Of a DNA stretch of 64,000 nt, positions 1 to 64,000 are shown in pieces. Within the stretch, counting starts at the first letter, position 1, and every line of letters starts with the position of its first letter. The stretch lies in sequence record NC_054928.1; one strand, written 5' to 3'. Source of the stretch: Escherichia phage vB_vPM_PD112. The notes beneath the pieces are model-generated. The model ran no database searches. It saw nothing but the letters and a program-made list of their open reading frames with translations, and was not told where the DNA came from. Made by a program: the position numbers and the translations under genes.

Positions 1-286
1 TGTATAATTCTTTCCACGCCGGGGAGTATCTTGAAAATGGAACTCCAAGCCAGAACAACGTGCCACGGTCCTGAGCTCTAGCATAAGACCTTCCAGCTTG
101 TTGGGCGGCAAGCCCGGATAACCCAAATATACGACGTTGTTGTTCAACATTTTTCACCTTGCACCCTTGGAGAAATCCTTCAAGACCTCCAAATTGGATA
201 CCATCCATAACAAAAGGCCATTGAGCGAAATTACTTAATGCACATGATGGCCATCTAAAATTGCTTCTAATCTCTAACTCAGACAT
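1..286 (-). CDS. Partial CDS (start at 286, runs off window start); NADAR/YbiA-like (DUF1768) motif SNF..PF..G..F..E.F.Q..K
   Basis: Own translation of minus strand from ATG at 284-286; motif resemblance only, no search run. Confidence 0.4.
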   Translation of the reverse strand, partial: MSELEIRSNFRWPSCALSNFAQWPFVMDGIQFGGLEGFLQGCKVKNVEQQRRIFGLSGLAAQQAGRSYARAQDRGTLFWLGVPFSRYSPAWKELY

Positions 287-485
287 TTTCAATGCTTATA
301 ATTTCAACATCAGCCCAATGACCATAGCAAGGAAGACGAAATTCAACTGGCCAGTTAGGGTCCTTTTCTAATATAATAGACTCAACTCGTGGTTCTTCAT
401 GTTCATCAGTATATGGATTTTTATCTGTTACTTTATATGTGACCTTAATGTACTGAATTCCAAAAATCTTATTAATTATATTCAT
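279..485 (-). CDS. hypothetical protein (gene 30 region)
   Basis: ORF track, 68 aa, compact spacing with neighbours. Confidence 0.45.
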   Translation of the reverse strand: MNIINKIFGIQYIKVTYKVTDKNPYTDEHEEPRVESIILEKDPNWPVEFRLPCYGHWADVEIISIENV

Positions 486-679
486 ACTAATTCCTTTAAT
501 CCGTAAATAGGAGATAATTCATCACCCATGCGAAGGTCTTCATTTCCATCTACCCAGGAAACAATATAAGCCTCTTTTATTTGAATACCACTCCATTTAA
601 ATGGAGGTAGAACCTTAGAAATTAATCCAGGTATACCAACTCCCTTTAATTCAACAGTTTGACCTAAAAAGAATTTCAT
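482..679 (-). CDS. hypothetical protein
   Basis: ORF track, 65 aa, overlapping stop/start with neighbours. Confidence 0.45.
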   Translation of the reverse strand: MKFFLGQTVELKGVGIPGLISKVLPPFKWSGIQIKEAYIVSWVDGNEDLRMGDELSPIYGLKELV

Positions 680-966
680 TAAAACCTCATCTGAAAACCA
701 TGCGATTTAACATTACCGCCGCCAATATCAGAAATGTTAATTTCACGCGCAATTGAAGGGTCAATGTCAATTTCGCGATTGAGTTTAGTGATAGCTAAAG
801 TATCGCGGCCATTTACAGTACGGAACTCTAAAGGGCAGACTACATTAACATAGTTTTTAATCGATTCACTAGTAGGCTGCAAATGAGCAGGAAGGTCTTT
901 AGGTGCCTTAGAGAAAACCACTTCACAGAAATTTTTGCGGGTATCAAAATAAGTAGTCATAAACAT
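679..966 (-). CDS. hypothetical protein
   Basis: ORF track, 95 aa; ATG at 966 preceded by GAGGAAAA SD. Confidence 0.5.
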   Translation of the reverse strand: MFMTTYFDTRKNFCEVVFSKAPKDLPAHLQPTSESIKNYVNVVCPLEFRTVNGRDTLAITKLNREIDIDPSIAREINISDIGGGNVKSHGFQMRF

Positions 967-1007
967 AGTATTTTCCTCAGTAAGGGGCCGAAGCCCCTCA
1001 TTTTATT

Positions 1008-1373
1008 TTAAATATCAAATTCGTTAAGAACTACATCAAAGATTGCTTCAAGATGCTCAGGTTTAGCTCTGTTACTCAGAATATGACGAATCCAAGTTTT
1101 AACCAGAAGCTTGCGATTAACGCCATTCCAGCAAGGATGAGTCCCTAAATCGCGTTGACGAAAATCATCATCCAATGCGATTTTAAAAGAAGAACCTTCT
1201 TTCGTGATTGAAACCGTGATGCCATTTTCAAATCGCATATAAACGTAGTTAGGAGTCATATACTGTTCAATTTCGCATACTGATCCATTTTGATGTTTCC
1301 AAAGGCAGATAGTATCAATAGAACCTGCAATACCGTTAGAAACATATTTACGTTCAAAGTTGATGTAATTCAT
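1008..1373 (-). CDS. hypothetical protein
   Basis: ORF track, 121 aa; early-type promoter upstream. Confidence 0.5.
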   Translation of the reverse strand: MNYINFERKYVSNGIAGSIDTICLWKHQNGSVCEIEQYMTPNYVYMRFENGITVSITKEGSSFKIALDDDFRQRDLGTHPCWNGVNRKLLVKTWIRHILSNRAKPEHLEAIFDVVLNEFDI

Positions 1374-1408
1374 TTTTATTCTCCGAGATGTTTAATTGCG
1401 GTACAGGT

Positions 1409-1440
1409 ATATAATATCATATCCTGTACCAAAGTAAACT
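1409..1440 (-). promoter_or_regulatory. T4 early-type promoter (GTTTAC -35, TATTAT -10 on minus strand)
   Basis: gtaaac at 1434-1439 and ataata at 1411-1416 on plus strand, 17 nt spacing. Confidence 0.5.
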
Positions 1441-1443
1441 ATT

Positions 1444-1812
1444 TTATGCAACTTTAATCCAATTATCTAAATTTAATTCACCTTTGGCTTTCATTTTTTC
1501 AATCAAGAGGTCAGCGGTAATACGACCATTTTGATACCACGTAACATCTTCAGAGTAACCAGTTTCTTTATCTTCATAAGTCTCACAGCGAATTTTACCA
1601 AGAATCAAAGTTTTTAATTCGTATGTATCTCCAGTAAAAAAGTTAGTTAACATTATTTTCCAAGAGAAATCATCAGAAGGACCTTCAGGAGTCATACAAT
1701 CTACGAATTCAAATTGTTCTTTATATAAATGCCACTGAAGTTCTTTAGTTTCAATAGCTTTATAGCCGTCGTGATCTTTACCTTTGATGTATGAGTTAAG
1801 ATTGATTTTCAT
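1444..1812 (-). CDS. hypothetical protein
   Basis: ORF track, 122 aa. Confidence 0.5.
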   Translation of the reverse strand: MKINLNSYIKGKDHDGYKAIETKELQWHLYKEQFEFVDCMTPEGPSDDFSWKIMLTNFFTGDTYELKTLILGKIRCETYEDKETGYSEDVTWYQNGRITADLLIEKMKAKGELNLDNWIKVA

Positions 1813-1890
1813 TTTATTCTCCTTTGTTTGTGTAAGATAATACTATCACAAAGGAACCATACTGTAAACAACTTTGTGCAATCTTTGGAA

Positions 1891-1918
1891 AATAAAAAGG
1901 ACTCCCGAAGGAGTCCTT
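1891..1918 (-). terminator. Rho-independent terminator, stem GGACUCC, UUCG loop, U5 tail
   Basis: Hairpin 1899-1916 plus A-run 1894-1898 on plus strand; 27-nt core identical to soc terminator at 55118-55144. Confidence 0.6.
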
Positions 1919-1921
1919 AAC

Positions 1922-2098
1922 TTATGCTTTCTGCTTACCAAAACGAGAAGCATCATCTCGAAGAACCGCACGTGCTCGGCGCATGATCTTCTCAACAGTT
2001 TGATTGATACGAGAGTTCGACCCACGCTTGTAACCAGCGCGTTTAGAATCACCGACTTTCTTTTCAACTGCTTTCTTTGCTTTAGCTTGTTTTGCCAT
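1922..2098 (-). CDS. small basic protein, hypothetical (probable start MAKQAKAKK)
   Basis: ORF track 1922..2140 trimmed to internal ATG at 2098; Lys/Arg rich. Confidence 0.4.
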   Translation of the reverse strand: MAKQAKAKKAVEKKVGDSKRAGYKRGSNSRINQTVEKIMRRARAVLRDDASRFGKQKA

Positions 2099-9811: not shown

Positions 9812-11294
9812 TTAAAAGTATTTTTTAAAACTCATCATAACTTTATCATCAACATCATTATCAATCTGTGCAACAAGGTAAGATGACAGTTCTACTTCTT
9901 GTGGCGCGGATTGAACATTATCAGAATTAAGATATTCACGAATCCAAGGATATGGGTGTTTAACCGGAGCATCGGTAATTGGGCATGGAAGACCACACTG
10001 TTTCATACGAGATACAGTTAAGTAATCAATAAAGCTCCACATGCTATTTGTATTTAATCCAGGAACATCGCCATCTTTAAATAAATGAACTGCCCAGTCT
10101 TTTTCTTGGCGGTTAACTTCCATGAAAATATCAACTGCTTCTTGTTCACACTCTTGAGCAATTTTAACCCATTCATCACCATCAGTGCCAAGTTGAAGTT
10201 GACGAATAATATATTGGGTGCCTTTAAGGTGAAGCTGCTCATCACGTGCAATGAACTTCATAATCTTGGCATTACCTTCCATGATTTCCATGTTCTTATG
10301 GAAGTTAAAGGTACCGTTATGTTCGATTGAGCTCGCTAATTCTCAACCCGTTCTCTTATGAACTGCTACATATTACTATGCAGACCAGACTATATCACAA
10401 TCCCAGAGGGATTCTCCCCATTTCGAGTCGCTTGACCCTACGTCCGAAGACTAGTCGTTGAACCTTGCTTTGCAATTGTGCATCCTCTTAAAAGTATAAT
10501 CATTTATATTATACTAATTAAAGGTGCAAGCAAAACCTTGGCTGCTAGTTTTCCTATAAAGGACTTTCCAGCAATTAAAGGAGTTTTCGATAAACGTTAC
10601 CGTTTAAAGGCGCATTTTACGCAAAAGATACATAAAAACGAATAGCTTCTAAGGCATTAATAACGTGCAAACAGAGGTAAAGAGATTTCATTAAAGCACG
10701 TTTAGCTTCGGCTTCTTGTTTAATAGCTCGGTTTAAACGAAAATCAGCATCAGGAGATTCTTTAGCTAGTTCTACAAATTCTTTAGCATTTTCCCATTCA
10801 CGGGTTTTAATAAGAACATCATCATAATAACGCCCAATGGATTCAGCACGTTTCATAATAGCTTCATCTAATACAATCTCATCAAATACCTTCGATGGAT
10901 CAGTATAAAGATTTCGCATGATATGTGTATATGAACGGCTGTGAATAGTTTCACTAAAAGTCCACGTAGCAACCCATGTATCAAGGCTTGGGTCTGAAAT
11001 TAATGACATAAGTACAGCAGACGGCGCACGACCCTGAATGCTATCCAAAAGTGATTGATACTTCAGATTATTAGTAAAAATATTTTGCTGATACTGAGGA
11101 AGCTTATTAAACTGTGCAGCATCCATCATTAAGTTTACTTCTTCAGGACGCCAGAAAAATGATAAGGACTTCTCTGTAAGTTCTTCAAATACCTTATGTC
11201 GTTGAATATCATAACGTGCAATTCCAAGACCTGAACCGAAGAACATAGGTTCTGTTAAAACATCAACTGGATTTGTATTAAAAACTGTGCTCAT
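9812..11294 (-). CDS. nrdB: ribonucleotide reductase small subunit, split by group I intron: exons 11294..10619 and 10314..9812
   Basis: Exon 1 ends FYVSFA, exon 2 carries MEGNAKI...SDNVQSAPQEVE; predicted junction restores a Cys aligning with E. coli NrdB FA-C-SFAF. Confidence 0.88.
10315..10618 (-). other. group I self-splicing intron in nrdB, ORF-less (about 304 nt)
   Basis: In-frame stop after exon 1; 5' splice site follows U, 3' end G; core similar to td intron (GACUCGAAA..., CAGACUAUAUC). Confidence 0.75.
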
Positions 11295-11345
11295 AAATTT
11301 TCCACTTAGTTAATAGTTGGTGACTCGTCCATGAGTCAAATTATA

Positions 11346-13610
11346 TCATAATTTACAGGATGAACAATCTTCAGCTTTTGGAGTTTCTATTTCATAATCA
11401 TCAGTACCAGAACCATCACGGGTATTATGATAATAGAAATTTTTAATGCCATAATACCATCCGTATAGCATGTCATCAATCATTATTGACATTGGAACCT
11501 TTCCTTTTGGAAAAATCTGCGGGTCATAGTAAGTATTAGCAGAAGCAGATTGGCACACCCATTTCAACATAATAGCTACCTGCGTAAGATAAGGTTTATT
11601 ACCTTTCTTAGCTAATTTCCATGTATAATCATATAGATCTATGTTATGTTCAATATTGGGCACGACTTGATTAAAGGAACCCTCTTTTGACTCTTTAACA
11701 GAGACTGGTCCACGTGGAGGCTCGATACCGTTTGTACTGTTAGAAACTTGGGAAGATGACTCACATGGCATAAGTGCTGATAATGTGCTATTACGGATGC
11801 CAAAGAGCTTAAGGTCTTCCCGCAGCGCCGACCAGTCACAAACGTATTTTGGAGCTGCGATTTGGTCAATCTTTTTATTGTACCAGTCGATAGGTAATTC
11901 GCCTCGAGACCAACGAGTGTCTGAATAATATTCGCAAGGTCCTTTTTCTTTGGCGAGCTTAATGGATGCTTTAATGAGCCCATACTGTAATCTCTCAAAT
12001 AGTTCATGTGTTAAATCGTTAGCATCTTCATAAGAAGCAAAGTTACTTGCCAGCCAAGCTGCATAGTTAGTAACACCTACGCCAAGGTTTCGACGCTTTT
12101 TAGCTTTTTCTGCTTCAGGAACTGGATATCCTTGGTAATCCAACAGATTATCAAGAGCACGAACTTGAACTTCTGCCAATTCATTAATTTTATCTTGGTC
12201 TTGCCAATCGAAGTTATCAAGAACAAAGGCAGAAAGAGTGCAGAGGCCCACTTCAGCGTCAGGTCCATTCACATCATTTGTTGGAATAGCAATTTCACAA
12301 CACAAGTTACTCTGGCGAATAGGCGCCTTTTCACGAATAAACGGAGTATAGTTATTCGTATTATCAATGAACTGCACATAAATCCTTGCTGTTCCTGAGC
12401 GTTCAGTCATGAGCAATTCAAATAGTTCACGGGCTTTAATACGCTTTTTACGAATATTAGGATCTTTTTCTGCCGCTTCGTATAATTCACGGAAACGGTC
12501 TTGGTCTTTAAAATAAGAATAATAAAGTTCGCCACCCATTTCATGCGGACTGAATAAAGTAATGTAATCGTTCTTTCCGAATCGTTCCATCATTAGGTCA
12601 TTCAGTTGAACGCCATAATCCATATGACGGATACGGTTTTCTTCTACACCTTTGTTATTTTTCAAAACGAGAAGATTTTCAACTTCCAAATGCCAAATAG
12701 GATAATAAGCAGTAGCAGCGCCGCCACGAATTCCACCCTGTGAGCATGATTTAACAGCAGTCTGAAAATGTTTCCAAAAAGGAATAACACCAGTATGACG
12801 CACTTCACCTGTGCCAATCTTAGAACCTTCGGCACGAATCATACCAACGTTAATGCCGATTCCAGCTCGTTTAGAAATATACTCAACAATTGAAGCAGAA
12901 GCCTTATTGATAGACTTCAGCGAATCACCTGCCTCAATAACAACGCATGAACTAAATTGCCGAGTTGGAGTACGACATCCAGCCATAATAGGAGTTGGCA
13001 ATGAAATCTGTCGAGTAGATACTGCTTCATAAAAACGAATAACATGTTTTAATCTGTCAACAGGTTCATCTTGATGCAATGCCATTCCAATAGTCATAAA
13101 TGCAAACTGTGGAGTTTCATAAATTTGACCAGTGGTTTTATCTTTAACGAGATATTTTTCTTTTAATTGCATCGCCCCGGAATAAGTAAATTCCATATCC
13201 CGCTCATGCTTAATTTTTGATTCTAAAAATGTAATTTCTTCTGCTGAATATTTTGACAGCAGTTCAGGGTCATATTTACCTTCATTTACACAGTAAGAAA
13301 TATGGTCAATAAATGAACGTGGTTCATACTGACCGTAAACATGCTTACGAAGAGCGAACATTAAACAGCGTGCAGCTACATATTGATAATCAGGCTCTTC
13401 AACTGAAATAGAATTCGCAGCAGCCTTAATGACAATAGTCTGAATGTCATCAGTTGTCATTCCATCACGGAGATATGATTTAATATTTTCATATAATTCA
13501 TAAGGATCTACAGATGTTCCTTCAGCTGCCCAAGATAAAACTTTAATAATTTTTTGCGGGTCAAAGCTTTGAGAAACACCACTACTTTTGATAACATTAA
13601 TTAATTGCAT
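11346..13610 (-). CDS. nrdA: ribonucleotide reductase large subunit
   Basis: 754 aa, class Ia RNR catalytic subunit; T4 NrdA size and position. Confidence 0.95.
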   Translation of the reverse strand: MQLINVIKSSGVSQSFDPQKIIKVLSWAAEGTSVDPYELYENIKSYLRDGMTTDDIQTIVIKAAANSISVEEPDYQYVAARCLMFALRKHVYGQYEPRSFIDHISYCVNEGKYDPELLSKYSAEEITFLESKIKHERDMEFTYSGAMQLKEKYLVKDKTTGQIYETPQFAFMTIGMALHQDEPVDRLKHVIRFYEAVSTRQISLPTPIMAGCRTPTRQFSSCVVIEAGDSLKSINKASASIVEYISKRAGIGINVGMIRAEGSKIGTGEVRHTGVIPFWKHFQTAVKSCSQGGIRGGAATAYYPIWHLEVENLLVLKNNKGVEENRIRHMDYGVQLNDLMMERFGKNDYITLFSPHEMGGELYYSYFKDQDRFRELYEAAEKDPNIRKKRIKARELFELLMTERSGTARIYVQFIDNTNNYTPFIREKAPIRQSNLCCEIAIPTNDVNGPDAEVGLCTLSAFVLDNFDWQDQDKINELAEVQVRALDNLLDYQGYPVPEAEKAKKRRNLGVGVTNYAAWLASNFASYEDANDLTHELFERLQYGLIKASIKLAKEKGPCEYYSDTRWSRGELPIDWYNKKIDQIAAPKYVCDWSALREDLKLFGIRNSTLSALMPCESSSQVSNSTNGIEPPRGPVSVKESKEGSFNQVVPNIEHNIDLYDYTWKLAKKGNKPYLTQVAIMLKWVCQSASANTYYDPQIFPKGKVPMSIMIDDMLYGWYYGIKNFYYHNTRDGSGTDDYEIETPKAEDCSSCKL

Positions 13611-13880
13611 AAGTCCTCAACTTGAAAATCGTCTTTAAACAATCGGTTAACTATATGAGCTATTATATCACCATGACACGGCTTTGGTTTACATGTGCAT
13701 CCTAGCCTCATTCCACGTAAAGGCTCTAAATGTGCTTTAGTTATTTCTCCGGATTTAATTCGACGTATAAAATCTTTTTGAATAATTCAATGGCAGCCTC
13801 CCGGCTGCCAGCATCTTTACCGACGTAATTTCCCCCAAAATGTACCACGGTGAATATTAACATCAAAGTCGGATTTGTAT

Positions 13881-14144
13881 TTATTCACTACCCGACATAG
13901 ACGGCCCGCGCGGTGATAATTCGGCATATTGTTTTTCCGTTAAAACAGTAATATCGTAGTAACAGTCAGAAGAAGTTTTAACTGTGGAAATTTTATTATC
14001 AAAATACTCACGAGTCATTTTATGAGTATAATATTTTTTGCCATAAATGATAATAGGCTGATTTGGTCCTGGAACTTCTAGCTCACTTGGATTAGGAAGT
14101 GTAAAAAGAACTACACCAGAAGTATCTTTAAATCGTAAAATCAT
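13881..14144 (-). CDS. hypothetical protein
   Basis: ORF track, 87 aa; between td and nrdA. Confidence 0.45.
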
Positions 14145-14167: not shown

Positions 14168-15289
14168 TTACACTGCCATTTTTCCTTTAATAGGAGGGTG
14201 TGATTCATAACCTTTAAGAACGAAATCTTTAGGCCTGAGTTTAAGAACATATTTTAATTGTTCTTTAGTAGAAAGATAGCGGAATTTATAAGGTAGACCA
14301 CTTATTACCAGTTCACAAAGCTCTTTAGGTTCACGACGTAAAATTTCTTTACACTGTTCTACGTGATTCATATAGATATGAGTATTACCACCAGAAAATA
14401 TCAAATCTCCTGGAATAAGATTACACATCTTAGCTACAATATGAACTAACGCAGCATATGATGCAATATTAAATGGAAGCATTATGTTCAGATAAGGTCG
14501 TTAATCTTATCCCGGAATTATATCCAGCTGCATGTCACCATGCAGAGCAGACTATATCTCCAACTTGCTAAAGCAAGTTGTCTATCGTTTCGAGTCACTT
14601 GACCCTACTCCCTAAAGGGATAGTCGTTAGGCATTTATGTAGAACCAAAGTCCTACAATTTAGCACGGGATTGTCTACTAGAGAGGTTCCCCGTTTAGAT
14701 AGATTACAAGTATAAGTCACCTTATACTCAGGCCTAAATTAACCCAAGAAAACATCTACAGAACGTTGATACCACTGCAAATCCAAATAGCCATTACGCA
14801 CATTAAACTGATAGAACATGTGACAAGGCGGTAATGCCATTTGCTTAAGTTCAGCTGGATTCCATGCAGAAACAATTTGACGCCTATCATTCGGCAGTTT
14901 TTTAATACGATCAATAACTTCTATAATTTGGTCTACACCGCCAAAATCACGCCATTGTTTTCCATAAATTGGACCAAGTTCACCGCTATGATATCCTAAA
15001 TCTTTTGCTTGATTTTCGTAATTTTCATCCCAGACTGTTTTGCCTTGAATTAATGAATTATGTTGAATTAATCGCAAATCATTTACGTTAGTACTTCCTG
15101 ATAAGAACCACAATAACTCAGAAATACATGCATTCCAGGCGAGCTTCTTAGTCGTTACTGCAGGAAAACCTTTAGTTAAATCCCAACGTAATTTAGTACC
15201 GAACAAAGCAATTGTTCCTGTGCCTGTTCGGTCATCGGTTTCATAACCGTTTTCCAGGATATCTTTAATTAAAAATTGGTATTGTTTCA

Positions 15290-15290
<1 letters not shown>
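14168..15290 (-). CDS. td: thymidylate synthase, split by group I intron: exons 15290..14742 and 14479..14168 (286 aa spliced)
   Basis: Exon 1 ends VDVFLG, exon 2 begins LPFNIASYA; spliced product matches recalled T4 TS; start MKQYQ at 15290. Confidence 0.92.
14480..14741 (-). other. group I self-splicing intron in td, ORF-less (262 nt; no I-TevI-like ORF)
   Basis: Begins UAAUUUAGGCCUGAGUAUAAGGUGACUUAUACUUG, ends CUUAUCUGAACAUAAUG; matches recalled T4 td intron core. Confidence 0.85.
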
Positions 15291-16322
<1,032 letters not shown>

Positions 16323-17433: not shown

Positions 17434-18342
17434 TTAAAGGTCATTCAAAAGGTCATCCAGATCCGTGTCATCAGCACTAGATGAACTGCCAGAGCTTGAG
17501 CTCATAAAATCATCTTCAGTTTTTGTTTTGAAGTCATCAACATTGAATGCATCCAAATCATCAGCAACTTTATCAGCTTTCTTAGCGGCAGTTGCTGCGG
17601 CACCACCCATAGCAGCAGTTCCCATAACTTGACTGAACTTAGTGCTCAGTTCTTCAAACGATTTGAATTTATCTTTAGAAGTCATTTCAGAAAGGTCAAC
17701 CATTTGTTCGAACAGTTCTTTCTGGAAAGATTCATCATCAATGTTTGGAATCGCAGATTGATTCAGGAATTTAGATTCGTCATAGTTACTAAAACCAGAA
17801 ACTTGTTTAACTTTCAGTACAAAGTTAGCACCTTCCCACGGACAAGTTACATCAACCGGAGTTTCACCCATTTCAACATCAACTGCAATCATTGCATTGA
17901 TTTTATCCCAGATTTTCTTACCGAAACGGTATTTAAATACTTTACCTTCATTTTCTGGAGCAGCTGGGTCTTTTACTACAAGAATGTTAGCCCAGTAAGA
18001 AGTTTTACGTTTAACAAGACCGTACTCTTTATTGTCAGTGTTGTACAAATCATTTTTACTGATGTACTGACATACTGGACAAGAATCGTAATCACCGTGG
18101 GTAGATGAACATGTTTCGATATACCATTTACCATTTTTCTTGAAACCGTGATTTACAAGAAGTGCGAATGGTGCTTGTTCATCATTTTTAGACGGAAGAA
18201 AACGAATTACTGCTTGGCCGTTACCCGCATTGTCGAGTTTCAGTTTCCACTCGCCTTTATCTTCAGAAGAAAAACCACCTTTATTTCCAGCCAGTTTAGC
18301 CATTTGTGCAGCGAGTTCAGCAGTAGATTTACGTTTAAACAT
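17434..18342 (-). CDS. 32: single-stranded DNA-binding protein gp32
   Basis: 302 aa, near-identical to recalled T4 gp32 including acidic C-terminal tail. Confidence 0.95.
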
Positions 18343-18415
18343 TTTTATTTCCTTTTTAATTTAATTAACAGTTGGTGCTATGACGATGTATGACCTCATA
18401 GCTGGTCAGTGAGAT
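18343..18415 (-). promoter_or_regulatory. gene 32 translational operator: upstream pseudoknot plus A/U-rich leader
   Basis: Leader reads GACCAGCUAUGAGGUCAUACAUCGUCAUAGCAC...UUAAUUAAAUUAAAAAGGAAAUAAAAAUG, matching recalled T4 autoregulatory site. Confidence 0.6.
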
Positions 18416-18419
18416 AATT

Positions 18420-18450
18420 ATAATCTATTTATAATAAGCAATTAATACTT
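18420..18450 (-). promoter_or_regulatory. gene 32 promoter region: MotA-box-like TTGCTTA plus late TATAAATA
   Basis: Minus strand reads AATTGCTTATTATAAATAGATTATAAT. Confidence 0.5.
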
Positions 18451-19095
18451 ACAAGATTTCACAGTTTCAATGAAAACACTTTTGGCTTTCTGCGAATCAA
18501 TATTTAAAATTTTTCTATAAGCCTTTAACTTTATAGAATAATTATTCCAGACTAAATTATCAGTCTGTTCATCATGTTTATCAATTATATTTAAAAACGA
18601 ATCAAGCAAGATAAACGTCTCAAACGAAATTATATTCGATTGAAGTAGTTTAAAAATATAACTTGATTGAACTTTTGGATTATACTCAAAGATTTCTTTA
18701 AAAGCAGAAACTTCAACTTTTTTACTAAAATAATAAATGTTGCGAATATCTTCTTCAAACTTAAATTTAATTTGCTTTAAGCGTCCGATATATTCACGAT
18801 AAAACACAAGTGCATCAGCGTCAGAGATGTCACCAATCCAAGCATCTTGGTTAGCAACAAGATTGCTTATAAAGATTAAAGCAAGTTCCTTTAATTTATA
18901 TTTTTCTGATAACTTCTGGAAAAAATACTTATCCCTTCGCTTTTGATAAGCGGCATCAGACACCCGCATGCACCAATTATACTTAATTACATCATACTTT
19001 CCATTCATATGTTGTTTTATCATTAAGTATAATTTATAAACTGATTTACCATCAATGTATCTTTCACCACCAGCAGGCATGCGGAGTTTAATCAT
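18442..19095 (-). CDS. 59: helicase loader gp59
   Basis: 217 aa; T4 gp59 size and position. Confidence 0.85.
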   Translation of the reverse strand: MIKLRMPAGGERYIDGKSVYKLYLMIKQHMNGKYDVIKYNWCMRVSDAAYQKRRDKYFFQKLSEKYKLKELALIFISNLVANQDAWIGDISDADALVFYREYIGRLKQIKFKFEEDIRNIYYFSKKVEVSAFKEIFEYNPKVQSSYIFKLLQSNIISFETFILLDSFLNIIDKHDEQTDNLVWNNYSIKLKAYRKILNIDSQKAKSVFIETVKSCKY

Positions 19096-19439
19096 AGTAG
19101 AAAATCTAATGTATTAGTTTTTTCACAACGAACAACAGAAGGACGTAAAAGATTTTCGTCAATAGCTTCTGACTGAATTTTTTCAATTATACCCGAAGGA
19201 ATAAATTTAGCAAATTGAGTTTCAGGAATAGAATTTTCTTCTAAGAATGCTGTTGTAGCTTCAAGATAACTCATTCCAAACTCTTCTACCATTTTTTCAA
19301 TAATAAATCCATTTTCTTGACGATCAAGAAGCTTTGCAATTTCATCCTTTTCTTTCTTAATTGAAAGTTCTTTTTCTGAAAGACCGGTCTCATCGACCGG
19401 ACGAATATCATTTAGAGAAAACTGTGTCATAAAGTTCAA
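19092..19439 (-). CDS. 33: late transcription co-activator gp33
   Basis: 115 aa, acidic; position between 59 and dsbA as in T4. Confidence 0.7.
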   Translation of the reverse strand: MNFMTQFSLNDIRPVDETGLSEKELSIKKEKDEIAKLLDRQENGFIIEKMVEEFGMSYLEATTAFLEENSIPETQFAKFIPSGIIEKIQSEAIDENLLRPSVVRCEKTNTLDFLL

Positions 19440-20705: not shown

Positions 20706-23700
20706 ATGGCCGAGATTAAAAGAAAGTTCAGAGCAGAAGATGGTCTGGACGCAGGTGGCGATAAAATAATCAACGTAGCTTTAGCTGATCGTACCGTAGG
20801 AACTGACGGTGTTAACGTTGATTACTTAATTCAAGAAAACACAGTTCAACAATATGATCCAACTCGTGGATATTTAAAAGATTTTGTAATCATTTATGAT
20901 AACCGCTTTTGGGCTGCTATAAATGATATTCCAAAACCAGCAGGAGCTTTTAATAGTGTACGCTGGAGAGCGTTACGTACCGATGCTAATTGGACAACTG
21001 TTTCATCAGGACCTTATCAATTAAAATCAGGCGAATCAATTTCAGTTGATACTGCAGCTGGTAATGACATTACATTTACTTTGCCATCTTCTCCAATTGA
21101 TGGAGATACTATCGTTCTTCAAGATATTGGTGGAAAACCTGGTGTTAACCAAGTTTTAATTGTAGCTCCAGTGCAAAGCATTGTAAACTTCAGAGGCGAA
21201 CAAGTACGTTCAGTACTAATGACTCATCCAAAATCGCAGATAGTTTTAATTTTTAGTAATCGTCTGTGGCAAATGTATGTTGCTGATTATAGCAGAGAAG
21301 CTGTAGTCGTAACACCGGCAAGTCTTTATCAGGCGCAATCTAACGATTTTATCGTACGTAGATTTACTTCTGCTGCACCAATTAATGTTAAACTTCCAAG
21401 ATTTGCTAATCATGGCGATATTATTAATTTCGTCGATTTAGATAAACTAAATCCGCTTTATCATACAATTGTTACTACATACGATGAAACGACTTCAATA
21501 CAAGAAGTTGGAACTCATTCCATTGAAGGCCGTACAACGATTGACGGTTTCTTGATGTTTGATGATAATGAGAAATTGTGGAGATTGTTTGACGGGGATA
21601 GTAAAGCACGTTTACGTATTATAACAACTAATTCTAGTATTCGTCCAAATGAAGAAGTTATGGTATTTGGTGCGAATAACGGAACAACTCAGACAATTGA
21701 ACTTCAGCTTCCGACTGATATTTCTGTTGGTGATACTGTTAAAATTTCCATGAATTACATGAGAAAAGGACACACAGTTAAAATCAAAGCTGCCGGTGAA
21801 GATAAAATTGCTTCTTCAGTTCAATTGCTGCAATTCCCAAAACGCTCAGAATATCCGCCTGAAACTAAATGGGTTACAGTTCAAGAATTAGTTTTTAATG
21901 GTGAAACTAATTATGTTCCAGTTTTAGAGCTTGCTTATATAGAAGATTCTGATGGAAAATACTGGGTTGTACAACAAAACGTGCCAACTGTAGAAAGAGT
22001 TGATTCTTTAAATGATTCTACTAGAGCAAGATTAGGCGTAATTGCTTTAGCTACACAAGCTCAAGCTAATGCTGATTTAGAAAATTCTCCACAAAAAGAA
22101 TTAGCAATTACACCAGAAACATTAGCTAACCGTACTGCTACAGAAACTCGTAGAGGTATCGCAAGAATAGCAACTACTGCCCAAGTGAACCAGGACACTA
22201 CATTCTCTTTTGCTGATGATATTATCATCACTCCTAAAAAGCTGAATGAAAGAACTGCTACAGAAACTCGTAGAGGTGTTGCTGAAATTGCTACGCAGCA
22301 AGAAACTAACGCAGGTACTGATGATACTACAATCATCACTCCTAAAAAGCTTCAAGCTCGTCAAGGTTCTGAATCATTATCTGGTATTGTAACCTTTGTA
22401 TCTACTGCAGGTGCTACTCCAGCTTCTAGCCGTGAATTAAATGGTACGAATGTTTATAATAAAAACACTGATAATTTAGTTGTTTCGCCTAAAGCTTTAG
22501 ATCAGTATAAAGCTACTCCAACACAGCAAGGTGCAGTAATTTTAGCAGTTGAAAGTGAAGTAATTGCTGGACAAAGCCAAGAAGGATGGGCAAATGCGGT
22601 TGTAACGCCAGAAACGTTACATAAAAAGACATCAACTGATGCAAGAATTGGTTTAATTGAAATTGCTACGCAAAGTGAAGTTAATACAGGAACTGATTAT
22701 ACTCGTGCAGTCACTCCGAAAACTTTAAATGACCGTATAGCAACTGAAAGTTTAAGTGGTATAGCTGAAATTGCTACGCAAGTTGAATTCGACGCAGGCG
22801 TCGACGATACTCGTATCTCTACACCATTAAAAATTAAAACCAGATTTAATAGTACTGATCGTACTTCTGTTGTTGCTCTATCTGGATTAGTTGAATCAGG
22901 AACTCTCTGGGACCATTATACCCTTAATATTCTTGAAGCAAATGAGACACAACGTGGTACACTTCGTGTAGCTACACAAGTTGAAGCTGCTGCAGGAACA
23001 TTGGATAATGTTTTAATAACTCCTAAAAAGCTTTTAGGTACTAAATCTACCGAATCGCAGGAAGGTGTTATTAAAGTTGCAACTCAGTCTGAAACTGTAG
23101 CTGGAACGTCAGCAAATACTGCTGTATCTCCAAAAAATTTAAAATGGATTGTGCAGAGTGAACCTACTTGGGCAGCTACTACCCTGGTAAGAGGTTTTGT
23201 TAAAACTTCATCTGGTTCAATTACATTCGTTGGTAATGATACGGTAGGTTCAACACAGTCATTAGAATTATACGAGAAAAATAGCTATGCAGTATCGCCA
23301 TATGAATTAAACCGTGTATTAGCAAATTATTTGCCATTAAAAGCAAAAGCTGTAGATAGTAATTTACTGGATGGTCTAGATTCATCTCAGTTCATTCGTA
23401 GGGATATTGCACAAACGGTTAATGGTTCACTAACCTTAACCCAACAAACGAATCTGAGTGCCCCTCTTGTATCATCTAGTACTGCTACGTTTGGTGGATC
23501 AGTTTCAGCAAATAGTACACTAACCATTTCTAATACTGGAACAGCAACTCGTCTGATTTTTGAGAAAGGACCTCAAACTGGGACGAACCCAGCTCAAACG
23601 ATGACAGTCAGCGTGTGGGGGAATCAATTTAGTGGGGGATCAGATACAACACGTTCTACCGTATTTGAAGTTAGTGATGAAACATCTTATCACTTTTATT

Positions 23701-42192: not shown

Positions 42193-42722
42193 CTGGCTCA
42201 TCCATTCTTTACGAAGGTCAGCATTATCTCCCATGAGCATTTCAAAAAGCTCTTTCCAATTCTCAGGAAGTTTAACAACATCATATACTGGGTTTTGAAT
42301 CATCTCACGATATTCAGATTTTTCCAAAGAGCCAAGTCCCTTAATATAACGGATGCTATGTTTAGGTAGAGCATCTTTGGCACTCTCATATTCAGCGACT
42401 GTATAAAACCATTCTTGTTTTTTGCCGACCTGAGCGATGATTACAGGAGTTTTGACAAAGCGAATTCTTCCTTGTTCAAACAGTTCTGGCCAATTACTAA
42501 AAAATCCGAGCAGAGAAGGATAAATAGAACCTAATCCAATAATCTCTTAATTATGAGGTATTTCTATAGATAGCCCGAAGGCTATCCATCGTGATCTGCG
42601 TCTGTCATAATAGCGACATTCGCATAGTTCATTGAAGAGGATTTAATAGAACGACGAACATTGTTCTGCAATTTATATTTTTTCATATCAACGCTAGAAG
42701 AATCAATTTTTACAAATTTCAT
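42193..42722 (-). CDS. 60: DNA topoisomerase II small subunit gp60; two coding segments 42722..42585 and 42534..42193 joined by translational bypass
   Basis: Segment 1 MKFVKIDSS...MTDADHDG ends GGA-UAG; segment 2 LGSIYPSLLGFFSNWPEL... resumes after landing GGA; 160 aa total as in T4. Confidence 0.9.
42535..42584 (-). other. gene 60 50-nt translational bypass (hop) element
   Basis: UAG stop after take-off GGA, hairpin UAGCCUUCGGGCUA, landing GGA at 42535-42537. Confidence 0.9.
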
Positions 42723-63137: not shown

Positions 63138-63803
63138 TTATAATAGTGTTCTTGTTCCACGAAATACTTCGAGCATTCTTGCATAAGATTTATTTGGAAA
63201 TCCAGCCTCAATTGCTAATTTTTTAAGCTTAATAGCACCGGGTTTTCCAGAGTTTTCCCATATTTCTTTAATCTTTTCAATGTTACCCCACATTATTGGG
63301 TCACGTTTATGTGATGGTTTATTTCTATTATAACCATATGGATTATTAAGCAAAGCTTCTTTTCGTCTTGCTTTAGTTTCTTCTGACTGCTTTTTGCCTA
63401 GCTGGACTTTCCGGCAAACATCACTAAATCCAAGATGTTTTGGTTTTCCTTTTTGAGCTTTCGAAATTTTTTCTTTAGTTTCTGATGAAACTCTATAACC
63501 AATTCTTCTACCACCCTCTCCGCCAATTTTTAAATTATAGGTCATAGGATCATTTACAACATCTATTGTTACTAATTCTCTTTCAGCATCCCGGGCTGAT
63601 TTAAAATCTTTATAAAACCCAAGAATGCTTAAATTAAAATTTTTCTTACCATACTTTTTCTTGGCTTGTGCTAATAAAGTTCCTGACCCCAGATAACCAT
63701 CATTTAAGTCATCGGTTGAATGAGTTCCGTAGTAAATTTTATTATTAACTAAATTAGTTATAACATAAGTATAATTATATTTCTTTTCTTTGTGTCTTTT
63801 CAT
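63138..63803 (-). mobile_element. segA: GIY-YIG homing endonuclease SegA-like
   Basis: 221 aa from ATG at 63803 (track start is TTG-extended); GIY-YIG motif YTYVITN...KIYYGTHS. Confidence 0.8.
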
Positions 63804-63807
63804 GTCA

Positions 63808-64000
63808 TTAATCAACTGCTATTGGATGAATAGCATTAAACTTATGAAACGCTTCTGATTTTTCTTTGCGCGAAACACACATGCGAAGAACCTTTAATGG
63901 CTCGTCTTCTTCACCCAACGATTTTCGTTTTTCAATATTAGAAGTTTTCCAACGAGCTTGCTCTGGAAATTCTCTATTGATTTGCTCGAGAGCTCTATTA
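63808..64000 (-). CDS. partial CDS, C-terminal end of upstream gene (possibly bgt by synteny)
   Basis: Open frame on minus strand ending ...FHKFNAIHPIAVD stop at 63808-63810. Confidence 0.3.
   Translation of the reverse strand, partial: NRALEQINREFPEQARWKTSNIEKRKSLGEEDEPLKVLRMCVSRKEKSEAFHKFNAIHPIAVD

Follow-up and report, generated by a model that had tools for sequence, protein, structure and literature searches.

An ORF-less td group I intron in a T4-like Escherichia phage, a probable deletion derivative of the I-TevI-bearing intron

The thymidylate synthase gene (td) in the window, by which we mean the whole 64,000-nt stretch of phage DNA analysed here, is interrupted by a 262-nt insert, which is very probably the td group I intron of the T-even phages after loss of its homing endonuclease gene through a single 755-bp deletion. 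In every property that can be examined in sequence, the insert is a group I intron of the T-even td lineage; the intron-encoded GIY-YIG endonuclease ORF of a mobile intron is absent from it. The window belongs to a Tequatrovirus, and its closest record is Escherichia phage vB_EcoM_CE1 (ON229909.1), to which BLAST gives 100% identity in the td intron region, 99.6% across 12 kb and 96.5–99.3% elsewhere.

The td gene lies on the minus strand at 15290–14168 and is composed of two exons and the 262-nt insert (Table 1). The preliminary description had placed an intron at 14480–14741 and had td split at the same site as in T4. Its coordinates proved exact, on the minus strand, and alignment to T4 puts the insertion between Gly183 and Leu184, after the GGT of Gly183, as in T4. 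The reading frame of exon 1 runs into a TAA at intron nt 1–3. Joining exons 1 and 2 yields, as anticipated, a 286-aa thymidylate synthase with no frameshift and no stop, which matches the T4 enzyme at 275 of 287 aligned positions, the stop counted. The intron opens with TAATTTAGGCC and closes with AACATAATG, and exon 2 begins with CTTCCATTT; the exon junction (hyphen) reads GGGT-CTTCC in the window and GGGT-CT(T/A)CC when T4 is included. The td ATG (15290) overlaps the stop codon of an upstream 68-aa ORF. Exon 1 contains, 23–27 nt upstream of the insertion site, the motif CAACG, which is the I-TevI cleavage motif in the intronless td allele (PMC2988022).

Table 1. Coordinates of the td locus, of intron elements and neighbouring features in the window, and of compared alleles in extracted loci
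Feature	Position	Strand	Description	Basis
td exon 1	14742–15290	-	549 nt, 183 codons, Met1–Gly183, 3' end TTGGGT	translation and T4 comparison
td group I intron	14480–14741	-	262 nt, without endonuclease ORF	Rfam, T4 alignment, fold
td exon 2	14168–14479	-	312 nt including stop, Leu184–Val286	translation and T4 comparison
P1	14727–14748	-	exon nt -7 to -1 (14748–14742) with guide GCCUGAG (intron nt 9–15, 14733–14727)	fold, pair counts
P7 5' strand GACUAU	14620–14625	-	6/6 pairs, invariant in 10 variants	
P7 3' strand AUAGUC	14550–14555	-		pair counts
P6a hairpin, deletion scar	14638–14657	-	UGUAGGAC-UUUG-GUUCUACA; junction between intron nt 93/94 (14649/14648)	pairwise and multiple alignment, fold, pair counts
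Residual I-TevI frame, last 22 nt	14627–14648	-	..W F Y I N A stop	T4 comparison
68-aa ORF between frd and td	15293–15496	-	full-length phrog_9550 match, no Pfam match	
DUF5496 ORF	13881–14144		nrdA.2-like	
Short ORFs resembling a decayed nrdA.1-type gene	13604–13927	-	different frames, matching successive parts of phrog_464 (Pfam DUF4326 C-terminus)	
nrdB group I intron	10315–10618	-	304 nt	Rfam, 68.6 bits
445/446-nt alleles	FL18 400–844; F1 400–845		positions in extracted loci	
ORF-less N2/SEA1-class introns	N2 400–653; SEA1 367–616		positions in extracted loci	
348Ecol098PP td	205–2081		position in extracted locus; compared with window 14168–15290	

The group I assignment made in the preliminary description was borne out by the Rfam covariance model RF00028 (Intron_gpI), which matches 14528–14751 on the minus strand with 73.8 bits (E 7.4e-17; the gathering score is 50) and spans model positions 1–253 of 253, its full length. 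Pairwise alignment with the T4 td intron, which is 1017 nt long in NC_000866.4, shows that the window intron corresponds to T4 nt 1–93 joined to nt 849–1017, with 258 of 262 nt identical, so that the match of its ends to the T4 core, stated in the preliminary description, is now directly observed. Because of the full-length Rfam match and this identity to T4, the likeness to an intron is not due to chance. The missing part is T4 nt 94–848 (755 nt). The I-TevI ORF occupies T4 intron nt 133–870 (738 nt), of which 716 nt are lost and nt 849–870 are retained; besides most of the ORF, the loss covers the I-TevI late promoter/operator and the ribosome-binding-site hairpin. The 22 ORF nucleotides are retained because they also make up the 3' strands of P6a and P6 together with J6/7, and that the end of the I-TevI ORF overlaps with the intron core has been described (PMC3073962). 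Microhomology at the deletion junction amounts to a single T, 1 nt only, and there is no repeat. The two strands of P6a, which lie 755 nt apart in T4 with I-TevI between them, are separated by a 4-nt loop in the window intron. No frame of the 262-nt insert holds an ORF longer than 45 codons, and tblastn with I-TevI gave no match in the intron and no significant match across the 64-kb window, in agreement with the earlier claim that the insert carries no endonuclease ORF.

Our structural mapping revealed that the canonical pairing of the ribozyme is intact. The canonical td helices P1, P2, P3, P4, P5, P6, P6a, P7, P7.1, P7.2, P8, P9, P9.1 and P9.2 were placed on the window, and all 75 of the 75 canonical pairs form in its intron, the P3/P7 pseudoknot included (P3 6/6, P4 4/4, P5 3/3, P6 2/2, P6a 8/8, P7 6/6, P8 8/8). 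Across an alignment of 10 natural td introns, 98.5% of the cells are standard pairs, compared with 28–41% in a control in which the 3' partners were slid by 1–3 columns. Six pairs, located in P6a, P8 and P9.2, show changes on both sides (compensatory) among these 10 variants. An unconstrained minimum free energy (MFE) fold scores z = -4.1 against shuffles and recovers P1, P2, P3, P4–P6a, P7.1, P7.2, P8 and P9–P9.2, leaving out the pseudoknot; in this fold the deletion site appears as a closed 8-bp P6a hairpin whose loop is UUUG. At the 5' splice site, P1 pairs CUUGGGU with GCCUGAG (7/7 pairs, and 100% of cells paired in the 10 variants), and the U.G wobble, U(-1).G9, is invariant among them. 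P7 is the guanosine-binding helix and forms the pseudoknot with P3. The terminal G (omega-G) is also present, the 3' end of the intron reading AUAAUG-CUUCC (hyphen, splice site). The four differences from the T4 td intron are found in L1, in P7.1 (U.G to U-A), in the P8 loop (an extra C-G pair) and in P9.2 (G-U to A-U). Inspection showed that intron nt 6 and exon 2 nt +3 gain no pairing, and a compensation in P10 was therefore rejected.

Both td exons are under purifying selection. Exon 1 shares 92.3% nucleotide identity with T4, with 31.5 synonymous and 10.5 non-synonymous differences (dN/dS 0.07), and exon 2 shares 93.9%, with 13 and 6, respectively (dN/dS 0.11); the dN/dS values against VEc20 are similar for both exons. 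The selection on exon 2 is what joined exons would predict, and bears indirectly on splicing. From the pairing and the exons together we infer that the window intron splices. It would be transcribed as part of the frd–td–nrd mRNA, and the UAA at intron nt 1–3 would halt ribosomes on the unspliced RNA. The ribozyme would fold through P1–P2, P3–P8, P4–P6a and P7–P9.2, after which exogenous guanosine is expected to attack after the U.G pair of P1; in the second step exon 1 would attack after the terminal G, generating the mRNA for the 286-aa thymidylate synthase. The predicted role of the insert is that of a cis-acting ribozyme restoring the td reading frame.

Because T4 can grow on thyA+ hosts without td, there is some room for a different reading, according to which the intron is a dead relic that splices poorly, td being an effective pseudogene tolerated through dTMP from the host thyA, or the two halves being translated separately as the GenBank annotators assumed. 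The CE1 record does present two thymidylate synthase CDSs, the second of which opens at the ATG of the last three intron bases. However, T4 itself has an ATG-ended intron and a split annotation, yet its splicing is established. The catalytic-core helices, the splice-site U.G pair and the terminal G are all intact in the window, each of the four substitutions separating it from T4 is neutral or improves pairing, and both exons are strongly constrained, without frameshift or stop. Moreover, self-splicing is known for laboratory td introns engineered with a comparably short P6a (PMC2729099, citing Galloway Salvo et al. 1990). We consider a dead relic highly improbable.

How the ORF-less allele arose is a separate matter, and the junction alone cannot tell "deleted" from "never inserted", because the 22 retained ORF nucleotides are core structure. 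One could imagine that the 262-nt form is original and that the I-TevI cassette (T4 nt 94–848) later entered its P6a tetraloop. The junction lies exactly at the top of P6a, leaving a tidy 8-bp hairpin and a 4-nt loop, and no I-TevI-unique sequence is left, the 22 nucleotides belonging to the core (PMC3073962). In reviews, the ancestral group I introns are also taken to have had no ORF (PMC3073962), and a second ORF-less class (N2, SEA1; P6a of the form GTTC-NNNN-GAAC) is not one deletion away from the T4 or CGG4-1 type. On the other hand, the window intron is near-identical to I-TevI-bearing introns of the VEc20 type, from which an old empty lineage should have diverged more. Its 3' half matches the I-TevI-bearing introns of VEc20, SQ17, 348Ecol098PP and others at 168 of 169 positions (T4, 166 of 169), and relative to the VEc20-type introns it differs at 1 of 169 positions in the 3' half and 3 of 93 in the 5' part. 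Three of the four sites differing from T4 (T6, A884 and A987) are common to the window and the I-TevI-bearing introns of VEc20 and 348Ecol098PP, and the window allele therefore nests inside the I-TevI-bearing diversity. Only two or three of the 242 intron-bearing records have the window junction, several other alleles clearly arose by deletion and still contain I-TevI fragments, one having been formed between 9-nt direct repeats, and the neighbouring nrdB intron has the same kind of microhomology deletion. A never-invaded ancestral intron thus appears improbable, with some small chance left to it. The three shared substitutions and the existence of intermediate alleles support the derived status of the window allele, as a deletion product of an I-TevI-bearing intron and not a primitively small form; a cycle of endonuclease degeneration and deletion has been described (PMC5009752). 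We give practically no credence to the idea that a full-length intron was collapsed during assembly. Short-read assemblies can collapse repeats, with nothing in this specific to td, but the junction is without a repeat and has 1 nt of microhomology only. The same junction is present in the separately sequenced CE1, 215Ecol030PP and, with one extra base, BYEP01, the exons of which are up to ~5% from the window, and the window is not identical to CE1 (99.6% over 12 kb). Since isolates obtained independently in China and Poland share it, the td junction is not an assembly artefact.

The intermediate alleles come from a survey in which 615 phage records matched the td region and 242 of these contained the 3' half of the intron, RefSeq/GenBank duplicates being counted. 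Shortened td introns are carried by ~35 of the 242 intron-bearing records, and ~9 are fully ORF-less by match span, again with duplicates counted; at least five independent deletions lie behind the shortened forms. Public T4-like genomes quite often have a shortened td intron, and a homing intron is predicted to lose its endonuclease in the end. The window junction recurs in CE1, in 215Ecol030PP and, with one extra base, in BYEP01, and in no other intron-bearing record. A 320-nt intron (Shinka, HP3 and ~15 more records) keeps 47 nt more of the 3' end of the I-TevI ORF than the 22 nt of the window. A 445/446-nt intron, found in FL18, F1, G28 and 112 and overall in five or more phages from two genera, reflects the loss of the sequence between two copies of the repeat CATTTTAAA within I-TevI; it holds an in-frame mini-ORF of 55 codons (N-terminal ~30 and C-terminal ~25 residues), with promoter and ribosome-binding site intact. 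Klebsiella phage EI has yet another partly deleted td intron with an I-TevI fragment. These different partial deletions support a repeated, independent decay of the td endonuclease gene. The td gene records of 2004, AY262153, 155, 156 (T6) and 157 (TuIa), all imply full-length 1016-nt introns.

The preliminary description had also suggested a natural minimal intron, and this stands in part. The window intron is a natural, ribozyme-only form; it is not the smallest, since td introns of 254 nt (phage N2 type) and 250 nt (Salmonella phage SEA1) exist, and it is probably a deletion derivative rather than primitively small. The N2/SEA1 class has an unrelated P6a, a short hairpin reading GTTC-UUUU-GAAC or GTTC-GAAA-GAAC, and the class is not derivable by a single deletion from either the T4 type or the Gelderlandvirus CGG4-1 type. 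It is a better candidate than the window allele for an old empty lineage, one that may extend across genera. BYEP01 resembles a mosaic, with a CE1-type junction and an N2-type 3' half.

Intron and exon histories are decoupled at this locus. Between the Mosigvirus 348Ecol098PP and the window, the td exons are 78.7% and 69.9% identical, compared with 96.8% and 99.4% for the intron ends. On these identities, 348Ecol098PP represents a clear case of horizontal intron transfer between genera, a pattern in line with the published proposal that introns have recently moved between T-even phages.

A second group I intron lies in the nearby nrdB gene. It corresponds to the 598-nt nrdB intron of T4 minus 294 nt between two ACAATTG repeats, whereby the I-TevIII remnant is gone and a 10-codon stub is left. 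With the splice sites set by using the T4 598-nt intron length as a constraint, the spliced product would be 392 aa, with the conserved junction ...RFYVSFAC-TFNF.... As judged from the two alignments, both the td and the nrdB introns appear to have lost their endonuclease genes via small-homology deletions that spared the ribozyme. The gene order is frd (DHFR), the 68-aa ORF, td, DUF5496, decayed DUF4326, nrdA and nrdB. In T4, frd directly overlaps td, whereas in the window the 68-aa ORF is placed between them. The short ORFs with DUF4326 similarity look like a decayed nrdA.1-type gene and not like an endonuclease. The gap between nrdA and nrdB is 51 nt (11295–11345), and mobE and nrdB.1, which are located there in T4, are absent.

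Several annotations in this region deserve mention. In CE1 (ON229909.1), td is annotated at 18067–19189 as two "thymidylate synthase" CDSs with the intron unannotated, and at 22063–23545 the second exon of nrdB carries the name "major capsid protein", its intron again being unannotated. The split td annotation is also found in most other records with a short td intron. Farther away, positions 42557–42587 on the minus strand match exactly what we take to be the start of the translational-bypass ("hop") element of T4 gene 60 (GGA UAG CCUUCGGGCUAUCUAUAG). CE1 annotates its gene 60 region as "DNA topoisomerase large subunit" fragments with an inserted ORF, and we assume that this ORF, between genes 39 and 60, is mobA-like.

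The window intron cannot home autonomously, because it is without I-TevI. Recognition of the uninterrupted exon junction by I-TevI is also reported from the work of Bell-Pedersen et al. in 1989–1990. Since I-TevI recognises this uninterrupted junction (PMC2988022, PMC5009752), an intron-occupied td allele is left uncut. The persistence of the window intron could have two reasons: td would be restored only by a base-perfect excision of the intron, and the occupied site would be no substrate for the I-TevI of co-infecting phages. It might spread passively via homologous recombination, or serve as the template for repairing a cleaved intronless allele, given I-TevI from another phage. Both the immunity to I-TevI and the passive mobilisation are expected by analogy with the characterized td system. 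It is conceivable, albeit unlikely, that the empty intron is kept by selection as a "vaccinated" td allele rather than by neutral decay. If so, the allele would be immune to I-TevI cutting and to linked marker exclusion in co-infection, with the cost of the endonuclease avoided, and the clean endonuclease losses in td and nrdB, along with deletions in ~14% of the intron-bearing phages, would speak of repeated selection.

No free-standing endonuclease gene is found beside td: the ORFs from frd to nrdB are without a GIY-YIG or HNH domain, and mobE is absent. Collaborative homing with a trans-acting neighbour endonuclease was ruled out, none being found near td. The only endonuclease-like gene noticed in the window is a 225-aa ORF at 63138–63815 (minus strand), ~48 kb from td and upstream of the recombination protein gene (the uvsX position), which carries the label "homing endonuclease" in CE1. 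Its tblastn match to I-TevI, over residues 6–20, is non-significant (E 1.3).

Sandegren & Sjoberg reportedly stated in 2004 that "several HEGs have suffered deletions". A natural td intron wholly free of an ORF is not explicitly described in the full texts searched, which did not include the T-even intron survey of Sandegren & Sjoberg (2004), the follow-ups from 2005 and 2007, or Eddy & Gold 1991, and a 2010 review had all three T-even introns encode their own endonucleases. The decay of T-even intron endonucleases (T4 I-TevIII; PMC2993671, PMC2790892) and the use of ORF-deleted td introns as laboratory tools are already known, and the ORF-less td intron neither reveals a new mechanism nor settles a long-standing question. 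Bacterial intron homing has its textbook model in the td intron with I-TevI, and the ribozyme-only allele together with its 320-, 445- and 1017-nt sisters provides a natural series for the cycle of endonuclease gain, decay and loss in phages. There is also a consequence for annotation, in that public records give td as two genes and, in CE1, nrdB exon 2 as a "major capsid protein".

Among the known systems, the T4 td intron (1016/1017 nt, subgroup IA2 in the literature) shares with the window intron the host gene, the insertion site, the splice-site sequences and helices P1–P9.2, with 98.5% identity over all 262 retained nucleotides. Unlike T4, the window lacks I-TevI, the internal late promoter/operator, the hairpin sequestering the ribosome-binding site, and autonomous homing. 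In T4, the translation of I-TevI interferes with td intron folding (PMC2988022), which is not possible in the window allele. The introns of collaborative or trans-homing systems (T3/T7-like DNA polymerase, cyanophage psbA, Aeromonas phage 25 gene 43 and T4 mobE/nrdB; PMC3984707, PMC2993671, PMC2790892) are, like the window intron, endonuclease-less and located in a conserved gene, but td in the window has no adjoining endonuclease gene. The T4 nrdB intron with its defunct I-TevIII (Eddy & Gold 1991, cited in PMC2993671; PMC2790892) is an instance of the same decay phenomenon, as an internal deletion of the endonuclease left splicing intact. T4 nrdB keeps a 294-nt ORF remnant, whereas the ORF is essentially gone from both the td and nrdB introns of the window. 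Finally, in the engineered td introns with a deleted ORF or a short P6a (Galloway Salvo, Coetzee & Belfort 1990; PMC2729099; the theophylline-dependent td/SIBR, PMC8565351), the core is left in place and the P6a loop cut down to a short hairpin, as in the window, and such constructs self-splice in vitro and in E. coli (PMC2729099, PMC8565351). The likeness is one of architecture, and in contrast to the engineered introns the window allele is natural and interrupts its native gene within a phage that replicates. The part with which nature dispenses is the same P6a loop that experimenters delete.
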